Below, piece by piece: positions 1,448-56,864 of a stretch of 64,000 nucleotides of DNA. The first letter of the stretch is position 1. Each line of letters begins with the position of its first letter. This stretch comes from Escherichia coli (GTDB lineage Bacteria; Pseudomonadota; Gammaproteobacteria; Enterobacterales; Enterobacteriaceae). A program made the translations under genes and the position numbers. The stretch lies in assembly GCF_003334815.1 (NCBI RefSeq), contig NZ_QOWO01000014.1, one strand, 5' to 3'. The notes below the pieces were generated by a model. That model saw only the letters and a list, made by a program, of their open reading frames with translations. It was not told where the DNA came from and searched no databases.

Positions 1448-2800
1448 TTATTGCCCCGCAACAGGTTTCAACTCGATACGCTTGATATCGCCCACCAGCA
1501 CCAGGTAGCTCAGTACCGCGATTAAGGCATGAACACCAACATAAATCAGCGCCCCATTAAACGAGCCAGTCGTGCCAACGATATAACCAATTGCGATTGG
1601 CGTGACGATGCCAGAAATGTTACCGAACATGTTGAACAGGCCACCGGAAAGACCGCTGATCTCTTTTGGCGCGGTATCTGCCATTACTGCCCAACCCAGC
1701 GCCCCGATGCCCTTACCGAAGAAGGCCAGCGCCATAAAGCCGATGATCATCCACTCAACGTTGACGTAGTTGCAGAACACCATCACCATCGACAGCAACA
1801 TGCCCATTACGATCGGTGTTTTACGCGCAATGTTCAGCGATCCCGTGCGGCGCATCAGCCAGTCGGAAATAATCCCACCCAGCACACCGCCGATAAAACC
1901 GCAAACCGCCGGAACGGAAGCCACAAAGCCCGCTTTCAGAATCGACATCCCGCGTGCCTGCACCAGATAAACCGGGAACCAGGTAATAAAGAAGTAAGTC
2001 AGGGCGTTGATACAGTACTGACCGATATAAACGCCGATCATCATCCGTGACCCTAGCAGCTGTTTGATCTGCCCCCACTTCACGCTGAACGGCACTTTAA
2101 CTTTGGTGTTTTGCTGATCCATATTGATCAGCGCACCACCCGCGGCGATGTACTCCAGCTCTTTCTTATTTACCCCCGGATGTTGATTTGGCTCGTGGAT
2201 GACTTTCAACCAGATAAAGCTGATGACAATCCCCAGACCGCCCATAAAGAAGAAGACGTGTGACCAGCCCACTTCATGCGTCAGCCAGCCCATAATCGGC
2301 GCGAAGATCACCGTTGCGAAGTATTGAGCGGAGTTAAAAATCGACACCGCCGTTCCCCTTTCCTGCGCCGGAAACCAGGCCGCAACAATGCGACTGTTGC
2401 CGGGGAAAGATGGCGCTTCAGCAAGCCCGACCAGGAAGCGCAGCGTAAACAGGGCAACGATAATGCCGAATCCACTAAAGATATCGACGAAGCCTTGCAG
2501 CAAGGTAAACATCGACCAGATAAAGATCGACCAGAAGTAGACGCGTTTTGAACCAAAACGGTCCAGCAACCAGCCACCAGGGATCTGCCCGATAACATAA
2601 GCCCATGAGAAAGCAGAGAACACATAGCCCATTCCCACGGGATCAAGGCCGATATCTTTGGCCATTTCCGAACCGGCGATAGAGAGCGTAGCGCGGTCGC
2701 CGTAGTTGAAGGATGTGACGATAAACAACATCACCACTATCCAGTAACGAGCATTTGTGCGTTTTTCCACACTGCTCGCAGCCTGACTTAAAGAACTCAT
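1448..2800 (-). CDS. gudP: MFS transporter, D-glucarate/galactarate permease
   Basis: 450-aa ORF with 12-TM hydrophobic profile and MFS motif GDRATLS...; first gene of gudP-gudX-gudD. Confidence 0.9.
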
Positions 2801-3234
2801 TGTTGCACTCCTGAAAATTCGCGTTAGCCACGCTCACTCTGGACTGCGACATCGCCAGGAAATCAGAGGTGACGTAGGGTGTTTTTTGCCGTTTTTATAG
2901 GTCGTTCGCCGAATACGGCGCGTGTTTATATCTGGCAATAGCAGTATAAAAAGCGCGCCATAGCGGCTCACCGTGCAACAACACAACATTAATGCGTTCA
3001 ATGAGGCCCGATTTTGGCATTAGCCCTGGACGGTGGAATCCACTTCACGGAAATGAAAACAAGAACAAGAAAGGAAGGGTTAAAACGAAGAAATAAAGAA
3101 GAGTATGAAATGGATCGCTTGACTCCAGGCAAACGCCAGTAAAAATCCGCGCTATGAAGCAGTTTTTACTGGCATTTGCCTGAAAAGATTCGATTCAGCA
3201 CCGCTAAAACGACATTTACCGCTCGCTGAACATA

Positions 3235-4855: not shown

Positions 4856-5224
4856 AATAAAAAAAGGGAGCACTGTATTCACAGCGCTCCCGGTTCGTTT
4901 CGCAGCATTCCAGCTACTTTTGTTGCTCCCTGCTCATCCTTGACAACTTTTCCTCTGGCCTTGCGGCCAATCGTTCATCCTGAACTATTGCTTCCTGCTC
5001 ACACCACCCCGATGTGATACTTCATCCTGAAGTGTCCCTGGCCTTCCTGACCCACCGAATCATCCTGACCGGTTCTCATTCTCCATCCTGGAGGTGTCCT
5101 TTAACGCGTCCTGCGTCATCCTCTTCGCTTCATCCAGAAGCCTTTCCCTGAAACACCATCCTGGTGTGTCCTGCAGAAGTGTCATCATCCTGATGTTCAC
5201 TTCGTTGTCTGACTCCCTGTCGAC
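4856..5224 (-). ncRNA. csrB: CsrB small RNA (CsrA-sequestering); ends approximate to within about 5 nt
   Basis: Minus strand carries about 18 repeats of CAGGA(U/A)G / AGGA motifs (seen as catcctg / tcctg on plus strand 4930..5220) and ends in a GC hairpin plus U-run (plus 4857..4889); no credible ORF. Confidence 0.85.
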
Positions 5225-20067: not shown

Positions 20068-20799
20068 ATGAAAGCGGCACGCCAGCAAGCGATAGTCGAC
20101 CTGCTGCTGAACCATACCAGCCTGACCACGGAAGCTCTCTCTGAACAGCTAAAGGTCAGTAAAGAAACCATTCGTCGCGATCTCAATGAATTACAGACGC
20201 AGGGTAAAATTCTGCGCAATCATGGACGCGCTAAATATATCCACCGTCAAAATCAAGACAGTGGCGATCCCTTTCACATCAGGCTGAAAAGCCATTATGC
20301 GCATAAAGCAGATATCGCGCGCGAGGCGCTCGCGTGGATTGAAGAAGGGATGGTGATAGCCTTAGACGCCAGTTCAACTTGCTGGTATCTGGCACGCCAG
20401 TTGCCTGACATCAACATTCAGGTCTTCACCAATAGCCATCCGATTTGCCATGAACTCGGTAAACGCGAACGCATTCAACTGATCAGTTCCGGCGGCACAC
20501 TTGAGCGCAAATATGGCTGTTACGTCAATCCCTCGCTGATTTCCCAACTTAAATCGCTGGAAATCGATCTGTTTATTTTTTCTTGTGAAGGGATCGATAG
20601 CAGCGGCGCACTGTGGGACTCCAATGCGATCAACGCTGATTACAAATCGATGCTATTAAAACGTGCCGCGCAATCGTTGTTATTGATTGATAAAAGTAAA
20701 TTTAATCGTTCAGGGGAAGCCCGCATCGGGCATCTGGATGAGGTAACGCACATTATTTCTGATGAGCGCCAGGTTGCAACTTCTTTGGTAACAGCCTGA
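20068..20799 (+). CDS. fucR: DeoR-family transcriptional activator of the fucose regulon
   Basis: MKAARQQAIVDLLLNHTSLTTEALSEQLKVSKETIRRDLNEL... (DeoR HTH); the ORF track start at 20059 is an in-frame GTG 3 codons upstream. Confidence 0.87.
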   Translation: MKAARQQAIVDLLLNHTSLTTEALSEQLKVSKETIRRDLNELQTQGKILRNHGRAKYIHRQNQDSGDPFHIRLKSHYAHKADIAREALAWIEEGMVIALDASSTCWYLARQLPDINIQVFTNSHPICHELGKRERIQLISSGGTLERKYGCYVNPSLISQLKSLEIDLFIFSCEGIDSSGALWDSNAINADYKSMLLKRAAQSLLLIDKSKFNRSGEARIGHLDEVTHIISDERQVATSLVTA

Positions 20800-20842
20800 C
20801 GGAAAGGGTAGCAGGCCGGAGACGACGCCCCGGCCTTGCCTG

Positions 20843-21943
20843 TTATCGCTCGTCGCGACGACCACCCACCGCAGCCCAGATGCGGCGGACGTGCACCGTC
20901 ACTTCTTCGCGATCGTGATACAACTGCCGCGCCTGAATCTGAGCATTTATGCCATGTTCATCAAGCTGTGCCTGAATATACGCCAGATTGTGTGACACTT
21001 CTTCGTAGCGTTTTTTCATCGGCAGTTTGAGGTTGAAAATGGTTTCACGGCACCAGCCATTAACCAGCCACTGCGCCATCAATGCCGCAACTTTCGCCGG
21101 TTTTTCAACCATATCGCATACCATCCAGGAGATATTGCTGCGCGTCGGACGGAATTTGAAACCGTCTTCCCGCAGCCACGTCACCTGTCCGGTATCCATC
21201 AGACTTTGCGCCATCGGGCCGTTGTCGACGGAATAAACCCACATGTTGCGCTTCACCAGTTGGTAGGTCCAGCCGCCAGGGCAAGCGCCTAAATCCACCG
21301 CCCACATCCCGTTCGCCAGGCGTTCATCCCACTCATCCGCAGGAATAAACACATGAAATGCCTCTTCCAGTTTGAGCGTGGAACGACTCGGCGCATCTGC
21401 CGGAAATTTCAGGCGCGGAATGCCCATATAGAACGGCGAATTATTGTTGCTGTATGAGTAACCGGTATAGCAGCAGCCTGGTGCAATAAAGAATACATGC
21501 ACAACCGGACGCTTCGGCGTTTCATAGTTCGCCAGCACCCCGGCATCGCGCAAGGCAGCGCGTAGCGGAACAGTAAATTTACGGCAGAATTTCAGTAACT
21601 CTTTGCTTTCGTTGGTATCGGCAACTTCAACACGCAGTTCACCGCCCTTCTCTACTACGCCCTGTAACATGCCGACAATGGGGGTAATACGATCTTCTGG
21701 CGGCAAATGCTGCAGGAGTTCCCCCACCACAAACCACTGGCGGGCAAAAATTAATGAACTGAACGGCAGCTCACGGATTAACTTATCGCCATCATCAGGT
21801 TGATAACATTCATAAATGACATAACCCGCATTCTCTTTCACGCGGGCAAAACCGAAAATTTCCCGCTGGCCGGCTTTATCGGTAATTTCTGCGGCGCACT
21901 CTTTTTCAAAGCCCGGACGGCACAGCAATACAACCTTATTCAT
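20843..21943 (-). CDS. rlmM: 23S rRNA 2'-O-ribose C2498 methyltransferase
   Basis: 366-aa [28 protein letters not shown]...; THUMP-like N-terminus plus methyltransferase C-terminus. Confidence 0.88.
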
Positions 21944-22331
21944 GACTTACGCCCTTGCGCTTTAAACGGATAGCACCAACTAACATTAACGCCCAGCCCG
22001 CGAGGAAGCTCACGCCGCCAACCGGAGTGACAAACGCCCACAAACGCAGATGGGACAGCGCCAGGCAATAAAGGCTGCCGCTGAACAACACCGTGCCTAA
22101 CGCGAGGAAAACGCTACTCCAGTAAAACCAGATACTGATGCGACGCTGCATTGCCACCGCCAGACCTAAGATCGCCAGCGTATGAAACGCCTGGTATTCG
22201 AGGCCGGTCTGGATCCAGCCCATCTCAACGGCCCCCATGGTTTTACTTAACACATGCGCGCCAAAAGCGCCCAGAGCCACAAAAATGAAGCCGCTAATGG
22301 CGGCGAAAATCAGCATAAAACGGCTGGTCAT
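21936..22331 (-). CDS. ygdD: DUF423 inner-membrane protein
   Basis: 131-aa four-helix hydrophobic ORF; overlaps rlmM start by 8 nt. Confidence 0.82.
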
Positions 22332-22349
22332 GGTCGTACCCTACGTAAA

Positions 22350-23267
22350 TTATTGTTCATAACGAAAGCGGAATTTTTCTTGTTCAGCAGCGGCTTTCGC
22401 CAGGATCCATTGGCGAAAGGCGGCTATTTTACCCAGTTCTGCCTGACTGTCATGACAAACCAGATAAAAAGCATTTTTACTGACCAGAACATCATTAAAC
22501 GGGCAAACAAGACGTCCGGCCTCGATTTCAGATTGCGCCATCACGTTATTTGCCAGCGCCACTCCCTGCCCGTGGATAGCCGCTTGCAGCACCATGGCGC
22601 TATGGCTAAAAATTGGCCCTTGCTGAACGTTGATATGATTTAACCCCAACTGTCGGGTATATGTCTGCCAGTCACGGCGCGAAGCATCATGTAATAACGT
22701 ATGTTTAGCCAGATCTTCCGGTGTCTTCAAGGGTTTTTCGCCAGTCAGCAGTAGCGGCGAACACACCGGCAATAAATATTCGGCGTACAGTTTTTCCACC
22801 CGTAGCCCCGGCCAGTTGCCCCGACCATAAAATATCGCCACATCAACATCATCCGCCAGCTTATCTTCCTGACGATCAACCGCCTGGATTCGAACGTCAA
22901 TTCCCGGATAAGCTGAATTAAAGCTGGAAAGTCGCGGAACCAACCAATGAATGGCGAAACTGGGGAGTAAACTGACCGTCAACGCCCCCTTGGCGCTACG
23001 GGCCTGGAGTTTACGCGTCGCTTCGGTTAATTGCGAAAATATCTCTTTGATATCGAGGAAATAGCTTTGCCCTTCCTCGGTCAGCAGGAGTGAACGATTA
23101 CGGCGGCGGAACAGTTTTAGCCCCAAAAAATCCTCAAGAGACTTGATTTGATGACTTACTGCGGCTTGGGTCACAAAAAGCTCTTCTGCTGCGCGAGTGA
23201 AACTTAAATGGCGTGCTGCGGCATCAAAAACTCGTAAGGCATTTAGCGGTGGTAATCGTTTAGACAT
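22350..23267 (-). CDS. gcvA: LysR-family regulator of the glycine cleavage system
   Basis: 305-aa ORF MSKRLPPLNALRVFDAAARHLSFTRAAEELFVTQAAVSHQIKSLE... (LysR HTH); divergent from gcvB. Confidence 0.92.
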   Translation of the reverse strand: MSKRLPPLNALRVFDAAARHLSFTRAAEELFVTQAAVSHQIKSLEDFLGLKLFRRRNRSLLLTEEGQSYFLDIKEIFSQLTEATRKLQARSAKGALTVSLLPSFAIHWLVPRLSSFNSAYPGIDVRIQAVDRQEDKLADDVDVAIFYGRGNWPGLRVEKLYAEYLLPVCSPLLLTGEKPLKTPEDLAKHTLLHDASRRDWQTYTRQLGLNHINVQQGPIFSHSAMVLQAAIHGQGVALANNVMAQSEIEAGRLVCPFNDVLVSKNAFYLVCHDSQAELGKIAAFRQWILAKAAAEQEKFRFRYEQ

Positions 23268-23395
23268 GGCTATTAAACTTTGATGTTAAATGAATTTAAC
23301 AATTAGATCACACTATGTAACCTATTAGTTTTTTTAATCTGAGCCATTATAAATTGTCCGTTGAGCTTCTACCAGCAAATACCTATAGTGGCGGC

Positions 23396-23601
23396 ACTTC
23401 CTGAGCCGGAACGAAAAGTTTTATCGGAATGCGTGTTCTGGTGAACTTTTGGCTTACGGTTGTGATGTTGTGTTGTTGTGTTTGCAATTGGTCTGCGATT
23501 CAGACCATGGTAGCAAAGCTACCTTTTTTCACTTCCTGTACATTTACCCTGTCTGTCCATAGTGATTAATGTAGCACCGCCTAATTGCGGTGCTTTTTTT
23601 T
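23396..23601 (+). ncRNA. gcvB: GcvB small RNA; ends approximate
   Basis: Starts ACTTCCTGAGCCGGAACGAAAAG, contains the G/U-rich seed tgtgatgttgtgttgttgtgtttg (23461..23484) and ends in hairpin gcaccgcctaattgcggtgc plus T8; divergent from gcvA as in the known arrangement. Confidence 0.85.
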
Positions 23602-23617
23602 ACCTTGCGATCGCGAA

Positions 23618-23845
23618 TTACTGATCCAGTTCGACCATCTCTTTCACGTCAGTACGGTTGATCTGCTGTTTGTTGCCATTAGCGTCTTTATACGAAATCA
23701 TACCGGTATCGTTATCAGTCTGTGGTTTGCCGTCAGAGACGATGGTACGTCCGTCATTGGTGTGCATCACATAGTTCGAACCGGAACAGGCGCTCAGGGC
23801 AAAAGTCAGCATACAGGCAGAAATAATTGCGGCAGTCTTTTTCAT
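23618..23845 (-). CDS. ygdI: DUF903 small lipoprotein
   Basis: [22 protein letters not shown] lipobox signal peptide; paralogue of ygdR in this window. Confidence 0.85.
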
Positions 23846-24036
23846 CATCTTCTCCTTAAAGCGATTAATAAATCTTAATAGTATTGATTAACAGGCTAAA
23901 ATTAACGCCTAACACTATTCAGCATATGTTACTTACGCGGCTTCGCCAGGATATCCAGATAATTCTGATGGTTAGCACTCTCCTTGTATCAAAGTGAATT
24001 TTGCGTCACGATCGGTGCATCAAGCCGAGGAGTACC

Positions 24037-25242
24037 ATGAACGTTTTTAATCCCGCGCAGTTTCGCGCCCAGTTTCCCGCACTACAGGATGCGGGCGTCT
24101 ATCTCGACAGCGCCGCGACCGCGCTTAAACCTGAAGCCGTGGTTGAAGCCACCCAACAGTTTTACAGTCTGAGCGCCGGAAACGTCCATCGCAGCCAGTT
24201 TGCCGAAGCCCAACGCCTGACCGCGCGTTATGAAGCTGCACGAGAGAAAGTGGCGCAATTACTGAATGCACCGGATGATAAAACTATCGTCTGGACGCGC
24301 GGCACCACTGAATCCATCAACATGGTGGCACAATGCTATGCGCGTCCGCGTCTGCAACCGGGCGATGAGATTATTGTCAGCGTGGCAGAACACCACGCCA
24401 ACCTCGTCCCCTGGCTGATGGTCGCCCAACAAACTGGAGCCAAAGTGGTGAAATTGCCGCTTAATGCGCAGCGACTGCCGGATGTCGATTTGTTGCCAGA
24501 ACTGATTACTCCCCGTAGTCGGATTCTGGCGTTGGGTCAGATGTCGAACGTTACTGGCGGTTGCCCGGATCTGGCGCGAGCGATTACCTTTGCTCATTCA
24601 GCCGGGATGGTGGTGATGGTTGATGGTGCTCAGGGGGCAGTGCATTTCCCCGCGGATGTTCAGCAACTGGATATTGATTTCTATGCTTTTTCAGGTCACA
24701 AACTGTATGGCCCGACAGGTATCGGCGTGCTGTATGGTAAATCAGAACTGCTGGAGGCGATGTCGCCCTGGCTGGGCGGCGGCAAAATGGTTCACGAAGT
24801 GAGTTTTGACGGCTTCACGACTCAATCTGCGCCGTGGAAACTGGAAGCTGGAACGCCAAATGTCGCTGGTGTCATAGGATTAAGCGCGGCGCTGGAATGG
24901 CTGGCAGATTACGATATCAACCAGGCCGAAAGCTGGAGCCGTAGCTTAGCAACGCTGGCGGAAGATGCGCTGGCGAAACGTCCCGGCTTTCGTTCATTCC
25001 GCTGCCAGGATTCCAGCCTGCTGGCCTTTGATTTTGCTGGCGTTCATCATAGCGATATGGTGACGCTGCTGGCGGAGTACGGTATTGCCCTGCGGGCCGG
25101 GCAGCATTGCGCTCAGCCGCTACTGGCAGAATTAGGCGTAACCGGCACACTGCGCGCCTCTTTTGCGCCATATAATACAAAGAGTGATGTGGATGCGCTG
25201 GTGAATGCCGTTGACCGCGCGCTGGAATTATTGGTGGATTAA
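24037..25242 (+). CDS. csdA: Cysteine desulfurase / sulfinate desulfinase (class V aminotransferase)
   Basis: [32 protein letters not shown]...; GAGGAG SD before ATG 24037; the ORF track start at 24001 is an upstream extension. Confidence 0.88.
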
Positions 25243-25685
25243 TGACAAACCCGCAATTCGCCGGACATCCGTTCGGCACAACCGTAACCGCAGAAACGTT
25301 ACGCAATACCTTCGCACCGTTGACGCAATGGGAAGATAAATATCGCCAGTTGATCATGCTGGGGAAACAGCTTCCGGCATTGCCAGACGAGTTAAAAGCG
25401 CAGGCTAAAGAGATTGCCGGATGCGAAAACCGCGTCTGGCTGGGATATACAGTGGCTGAAAACGGCAAAATGCATTTCTTTGGCGACAGCGAAGGGCGCA
25501 TTGTGCGCGGCCTGCTGGCGGTGTTGTTGACTGCCGTTGAGGGGAAAACCGCCGCCGAGTTGCAGGCACAGTCACCACTGGCATTGTTTGATGAGCTGGG
25601 ATTACGTGCGCAGCTTAGCGCCTCACGCAGCCAGGGGTTAAATGCGTTAAGCGAGGCGATTATCGCTGCGACGAAGCAGGTTTAA
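25242..25685 (+). CDS. csdE: Sulfur-acceptor protein (SufE-like)
   Basis: 147-aa ORF overlapping csdA stop; SufE-family sequence with conserved cysteine motif AGCENRVW. Confidence 0.88.
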
Positions 25686-25735
25686 GCACAGAACCGGGTC
25701 GGATAAGACGTTCGCGTCTCATCCGACCTGATTGT

Positions 25736-26595: not shown

Positions 26596-26693
26596 GCCTG
26601 ATGCGCTACGCTTATCAGGCCTACATAACTCCTGCAATATTTTGGATTTGCATGATTTGTAGGCCGGATAAGGCGTTCACGCCGCATCCGGCA
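26596..26693. repeat. Pair of REP elements (BIME-like) in the tcdA-mltA gap
   Basis: gcctgatgcgctacgcttatcaggcctac (26596..26624) and gtaggccggataaggcgttcacgccgcatccggca (26659..26693), classic REP palindromes in opposite orientation. Confidence 0.7.
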
Positions 26694-28085: not shown

Positions 28086-28162
<77 letters not shown>

Positions 28163-56580: not shown

Positions 56581-56668
56581 AAAAAAAACCTGCGCATCCG
56601 CGCAGGTTGGTGCAAGAGACAGGGTACGAAGAGCGTACCGAATAATCTCACCAATCAATACCTCTGGG
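56581..56668 (-). ncRNA. omrA: OmrA small RNA (88 nt)
   Basis: Minus strand reads CCCAGAGGTATTGATTGGTGAGATTATTCGGTACGCTCTTCGTACCCTGTCTCTTGCACCAACCTGCGCGGATGCGCAGGTTTTTTTT. Confidence 0.87.
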
Positions 56669-56782: not shown

Positions 56783-56864
56783 AAAAAAAACCTGCGCATC
56801 TGCGCAGGCTGGTGTAATTCATGTGCTCAACCCGAAGTTGACTTCACCTATCAATACCTCTGGG
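56783..56864 (-). ncRNA. omrB: OmrB small RNA (82 nt)
   Basis: Minus strand reads CCCAGAGGTATTGATAGGTGAAGTCAACTTCGGGTTGAGCACATGAATTACACCAGCCTGCGCAGATGCGCAGGTTTTTTTT; shares 5' and 3' ends with omrA. Confidence 0.87.

Follow-up and report, generated by a model that had tools for sequence, protein, structure and literature searches.

The closest described system is gcvB of Escherichia coli K-12 (b4443; Rfam RF00022), which encodes the GcvB small RNA. Its transcription is under the control of GcvA and GcvR, and the RNA is induced at high glycine (PMC9299463, PMC1557403). Two terminators, t1 and t2, give rise to RNAs of ~130 and 206 nt, of which the 206-nt species is needed to repress oppA and dppA; the RNA itself is not translated (PMC1557403). 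About 140 copies are present per cell in exponential phase. Contacts with target mRNAs are divided among three regions, R1 being used for most of them, R2 chiefly for cycA, and R3 for phoP, lrp and others. A second RNA, SroC, is derived from the gltI 3′ UTR and pairs with the SL1 and SL4 stems of GcvB, triggering its decay by RNase E (PMC9299463). Targets named in PMC1557403 and in the abstract of PMC3658540 include dppA, oppA and cycA.

The mechanism that emerges from this work would begin with GcvA which, modulated by GcvR and glycine, would activate gcvB when glycine and amino acids are plentiful (PMC9299463, PMC1557403). Together with Hfq, GcvB would pair mainly via R1, and also via R2 and R3, to C/A-rich stretches close to the ribosome-binding sites of its target mRNAs. 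Targeted in this manner would be many mRNAs that encode biosynthetic enzymes or transporters of amino acids and peptides, their translation being blocked by the pairing. Presumably, gltI, livJ and argT are among these targets as well. Pairing of the SroC sponge RNA with GcvB would then lead to removal of GcvB by RNase E. For the locus described here, expression of the RNA, its dependence on Hfq and its repression of mRNAs for amino-acid transporters are to be expected from published experiments on the identical K-12 sequence (PMC9299463, PMC1557403).

The DNA analysed is a 64,000-nt stretch of the E. coli genome, referred to below as the window. Its gcvB locus shares with K-12 the same 206 bases, the promoter, the two terminators and the neighbours (gcvA divergent, ygdI convergent and csdA beyond). 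With GcvB of Yersinia pestis and other Enterobacterales (PMC1557403), it has in common the divergent gcvA, a conserved control region, R1, R2 and R3, both t1 and t2, and the five-stem architecture of the RNA. Compared with the Rfam consensus, R1 is longer by about 8 G/U bases in E. coli (8 in the RNA of this window) and other Enterobacteriaceae, and the interior of SL1 in Enterobacteriaceae differs from that in Y. pestis and other Enterobacterales.

The gcvB gene, its neighbours and its control region

It is as good as certain that positions 23396..23601 on the plus strand are E. coli gcvB, encoding the 206-nt Hfq-dependent sRNA GcvB, and that the 97-aa ORF reported at its 3′ end is not a gene. 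A scan of the whole window with Rfam 15 returned RF00022 (GcvB) at 199 bits (gathering score 42; E 1.1e-46), covering model positions 1-204 of 204 without truncation. The first-pass annotation, made from the letters alone, had placed a 206-nt RNA here, and the span of the match agrees with it to the base at both ends. Across window positions 20700..25700, 5001 of 5001 bases are the same as in NC_000913.3 (2940000..2945000). The ncRNA annotated there as gcvB (b4443, small regulatory RNA GcvB, 2942696..2942901) projects onto 23396..23601 and is therefore identical to it. The alignment to GcvB that had been proposed as a check thus yields both a full-length family match and identity with K-12 b4443.

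Several further observations are consistent with this assignment. With +1 set at 23396, the R3 mutation sites of the literature, G156C, G160C and C162G (PMC9299463), land on G, G and C. Folded on its own, the RNA has an energy of -62.1 kcal/mol, whereas dinucleotide shuffles average -47.1 +/- 4.1 (z = -3.63); of 200 shuffles, not one is equally stable. A 631-nt region around gcvB is found in all 5426 of the 5426 complete E. coli genomes, 5386 of which carry it at 99% identity or more. In the RefSeq PGAP records examined, gcvB annotation is absent and only ygdI and gcvA are given; the gene is annotated only in the curated NC_000913.3 record (E. coli K-12 MG1655). Judged by its sequence, gcvB in this window is an already known gene with zero deviation from the reference, and nothing about it is new.

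The placement of gcvB divergent from gcvA and within the gcvA-ygdI gap, also proposed in the first pass, is borne out by the coordinates of both neighbours (Table 1). The distance from gcvA to gcvB is 128 nt, and the gcvA product matches NCBIfam NF008352 'transcriptional regulator GcvA' at 512.8 bits against a cut-off of 288. On the other side, the ygdI stop codon lies 16 nt past the gcvB 3′ end, and its product matches NF033216, the YgdI/YgdR lipoprotein family, at 113.2 bits against a cut-off of 42. Among the related loci listed, each one with enough upstream DNA has gcvA as its divergent neighbour on that side, and csdA is downstream of gcvB in nearly all. Between gcvB and csdA, ygdI is found in the Enterobacteriaceae-, Yersinia-, Serratia- and Rahnella-type loci among the matches listed, and it is missing downstream in those of Photorhabdus, Xenorhabdus, Proteus, Providencia, Morganella and Edwardsiella.

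Upstream of gcvB, a sigma-70-type promoter is predicted with a -35 hexamer TTGAGC (23361..23366), a 17-nt spacer and a -10 hexamer TATAGT (23384..23389), placing the RNA start 7 nt past the -10 hexamer. The TATAGT hexamer and its flanks are kept across species. In 103 distinct Enterobacterales upstream sequences, the block spanning -72 to -6 shows almost no variation, in contrast to the DNA towards gcvA. The block comprises an inverted motif, ATTAG-N7-TAATC, along with the gcvB -35 and -10 hexamers. It is presumed to be the GcvA binding region and fits the published location of that region within bp -90 to +1 of gcvB (PMC1557403).

The anatomy of the RNA in Table 1 was obtained by projecting the Rfam consensus structure onto the window. 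Both sequence features on which the first pass had based its reading can be located. The GU-rich seed corresponds to the G/U-rich GGTTGTGATGTTGTGTTGTTGTGTTTGCAA at about 23457..23487, and the strong terminator to an 8-bp stem with 6 G-C pairs and a 6-nt loop, followed by T8. The consensus scan also places the t1 hairpin directly ahead of TTTTTT, where termination would yield the ~130-nt short RNA. An R2/R3 sequence, CACUUCCUGUACAUUUACCCUGUCUGUCCAUAGUGA, is found at 23530..23565, and the window holds a single copy of the R2 14-mer against 0.01 expected by chance. By analogy with class I sRNAs, whose Hfq-binding module is a Rho-independent terminator with a U-tail, the terminator U-tail and the internal U-runs may bind Hfq.

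Table 1. Features of the gcvB locus and other small RNA genes in the window
Feature	Position	Strand	Basis or remark
gcvA, LysR-type regulator of the glycine cleavage system	22350..23267	-	305-aa ORF; b2808
Conserved gcvA/gcvB control block, -72 to -6 from gcvB start	23324..23390	.	cross-species conservation
gcvB sigma-70-type promoter (predicted)	23361..23389	+	consensus scan, 9/12 matches
gcvB, full-length 206-nt sRNA	23396..23601	+	RF00022, b4443
SL1, GcvB nt 9-59	23404..23454	+	Rfam consensus structure
Unpaired linker with G/U-rich R1, nt 60-93	23455..23488	+	single-stranded in Rfam structure
SL2, nt 94-112	23489..23507	+	Rfam structure and minimum-free-energy fold
SL3, nt 114-128	23509..23523	+	terminator-like site, then T6 (to 23529); internal terminator t1
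Unpaired stretch with R2, nt 129-144	23524..23539	+	Rfam structure
R2 (TCACTTCCTGTACA...) and R3	23529..23572	+	cross-species columns
SL4 holding R3, nt 145-177	23540..23572	+	Rfam structure
SL5, nt 178-199	23573..23594	+	with U-tail to 23601, Rho-independent terminator t2
97-aa ORF, TTG start, non-coding shadow ORF	23585..23878	+	mechanical ORF list
ygdI, small lipoprotein gene, convergent with gcvB	23618..23848	-	RefSeq start at 23845
CsrB	4856..5215	-	Rfam, 380 bits
ES036/CssrF, between tcdA and mltA	26617..26659	-	Rfam, 46.5 bits
OmrA/OmrB, two OmrA-B family matches	56581..56668, 56783..56864	-	Rfam, 96.6 and 86.1 bits

Conservation of the RNA across Enterobacterales

At least 120 loci were retrieved from species-representative genomes with a gapped R1-R2 pattern, and 108 sequences (107 of them distinct) were aligned with MAFFT. 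All of the retrieved loci belong to Enterobacterales, save one Paenibacillus contig. As a candidate GcvB outside the Proteobacteria, this contig was rejected, given that it lacks an Rfam GcvB match and has none of gcvA, ygdI and csdA in its vicinity. A chance match accounts for it, about one being estimated for a 22-base gapped pattern in 298 Gb.

The R1 core, TTGTGTTTGCAA, is invariant in the 108 sequences, although this 12-mer belongs to the retrieval pattern and its invariance is by construction. In R2/R3, CACTTCCTGTACATTTACCCTGTCTGTCCATAGTGA is invariant or nearly so, and the columns of CACUUCCUGUACAUUUACCCUGUCUGUCCAUAGUGA are either invariant or at least 90% conserved; here CACTTCCTGT, from R2, was part of the pattern, and the R3 stretch CCCTGTCTGTCCATAGTGA was outside it. 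The 5′ end (ACTTCC..AGCCGGAACGAAAAG) and the terminator (GCACCGC...GCGGTGCTTTTTTT) are likewise invariant or nearly so in the same 108 sequences. Because the pattern used both R1 and R2, their conservation is partly by construction, an effect that does not touch the 5′ end, R3 or the terminator. The first 8 nt of GcvB (ACUUCCUG, 23396..23403) recur exactly inside R2 (CACUUCCUGU, 23531..23538), and both copies are nearly invariant across species, the R2 copy being located inside the retrieval pattern.

The secondary structure of GcvB is supported by base-pair conservation and covariation. For the Rfam pairs, 85.4% of alignment cells form standard pairs, whereas sliding the partners by 1-3 columns lowers this to 35-51%. 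Pairs changed on both sides number 17 against 10.5 +/- 1.3 in column shuffles, and none of 500 shuffles reaches 17. It is in the inner helices of SL1 that the compensatory changes cluster; all 10 double-changed pairs of helices 2-3 are found in this stem-loop, and the SL1 helices have 83-99% of their cells paired. In SL2 the value is 63.7% in the MAFFT alignment, which looks low because MAFFT misaligned a one-base register shift between Enterobacteriaceae and the other families; the stem itself is kept across species. SL5/t2 is paired in 96.4% of cells across species. As SL4 and SL5 are nearly invariant, they are uninformative for covariation. What RNAalifold recovered from the same alignment was limited to SL3, the terminator, the outer part of SL1 and, for the invariant R2/R3 region, an alternative pairing. 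The RNAalifold covariation term was almost zero since the RNA is for the most part too conserved among these sequences.

Two of the loci (L088, 5575..5805, and L091, 3708..3937) carry a GcvB of ~230 nt in which the 5′ part, corresponding to the SL1 region, is strongly unlike the usual ACTTCC..AGCCGGAACG. Both RNAs still score 147-150 bits against RF00022.

Open reading frames opposite ygdI and inside gcvB

As the first-pass annotation had pointed out, a 97-aa ORF in the mechanical list overlaps the terminator and ygdI, and it in fact covers all of ygdI. That this frame is a real coding gene, overlapping the gcvB terminator and antisense to ygdI, is very unlikely, even though its 97 codons run uninterrupted from a TTG start and no stop breaks the frame in 26 of 73 orthologous loci either. 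The codons of the ORF (23585 + 3k) are the exact reverse complement of the ygdI codons (from 23848), and the ORF is therefore an in-register antisense frame. In this register, long open frames are expected by chance because stops arise only opposite TTA, CTA and TCA. Among the matches listed, 47 of the 73 loci with near-full ygdI contain at least one in-frame stop. An NCBIfam search with the predicted protein returned no match, whereas YgdI scores 113 bits, and in 53 ungapped comparisons amino acid identity is 60% for the ORF as opposed to 86% for YgdI. Substitutions at ygdI codon positions 1/2/3 number 378/141/1528, a pattern of purifying selection in the ygdI frame. The proposed start falls within the terminator hairpin of gcvB and past a strong terminator, and the frame is annotated in neither the curated nor the PGAP records.

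The 97-aa ORF was rejected as a gene on the basis of its lack of a family, its stops in orthologues and substitutions that follow ygdI. On this comparative evidence it is a shadow ORF opposite ygdI. It is also typical of shadow ORFs opposite real genes in being codon-aligned to the reverse strand of its partner with no conservation at the protein level. As an artefact of the ORF track, it should be discarded and not kept as a gene.

Two smaller ORFs in the mechanical list, of 46 aa (23429..23569) and 37 aa (23449..23562), raise the question of GcvB as a dual-function RNA that also encodes a peptide. Of the 108 aligned sequences, 60 retain the ATG of the 46-aa ORF, which speaks in its favour; against it, the start is lost in the other 48, and where it is kept the frame ranges in length from 2 to 59 codons, with indels that shift the frame. 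Moreover, the ATG is positioned within the SL1 loop/stem, and the frame crosses R1 and structured stems. Taken together with the published finding that the RNA is not translated (PMC1557403), the unconserved start and frame led to rejection of both ORFs as peptide genes, and a coding role for GcvB is given about as little credence as the 97-aa gene.

The weakest alternative, a chance resemblance to GcvB or a decayed and unexpressed remnant of it, is extremely improbable given a covariance-model E of 1e-46, sequence identity to the experimentally studied K-12 gene, a promoter, operator block and terminators that are intact and conserved, and the presence of the region in all 5426 E. coli genomes.

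Transcription from ygdI and variation at and around gcvB

One aspect of the locus concerns transcription arriving from the convergent gene. The consensus scan found no terminator-like site on the minus strand after ygdI. Since ygdI has no such site of its own and only a 16-nt gap separates it from gcvB, its transcripts may run into gcvB. That they go on to read through the t2 hairpin and run antisense across GcvB is improbable. If it did occur, such read-through would couple the lipoprotein gene to GcvB levels, either by antisense pairing or by transcriptional interference at the hairpin. When the shared hairpin is read in the ygdI direction (23573..23617, minus strand), it is followed by ACATTAATCA and not by a U-run.

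Within the species, less than 80% coverage of the gcvB region was encountered in only 2 of the 5426 complete genomes, one of which is E. coli OkiPb01677 (NZ_AP042483.1). In this strain, an IS10-type element is inserted in gcvB at 1547..3090 of the retrieved locus (L002), with an annotated ISVsa5-family transposase and an Rfam RNA-OUT match. The 9-bp target duplication, AGCAAAGCT, corresponds to window positions 23512..23520, inside the SL3/t1 hairpin. OkiPb01677 is a natural gcvB disruption.

Relative to MG1655, gcvB is without differences and the surrounding window is not. At 28086..28162 on the plus strand, a single initiator tRNA-Met gene stands in place of the tandem metZ-metW-metV of MG1655, a loss of two repeat units that together amount to about 220 bp. 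An A-run about 50 nt upstream of the tRNA-Met gene is also one base shorter than in MG1655. At most 226 of the 5426 complete E. coli genomes cover at least 80% of the tRNA-Met junction in one place. With one tRNA-Met gene to the three of MG1655, the window is therefore K-12-like and is not the reference record. The gcvB gene is at its textbook position in E. coli DNA and brings no new biology.
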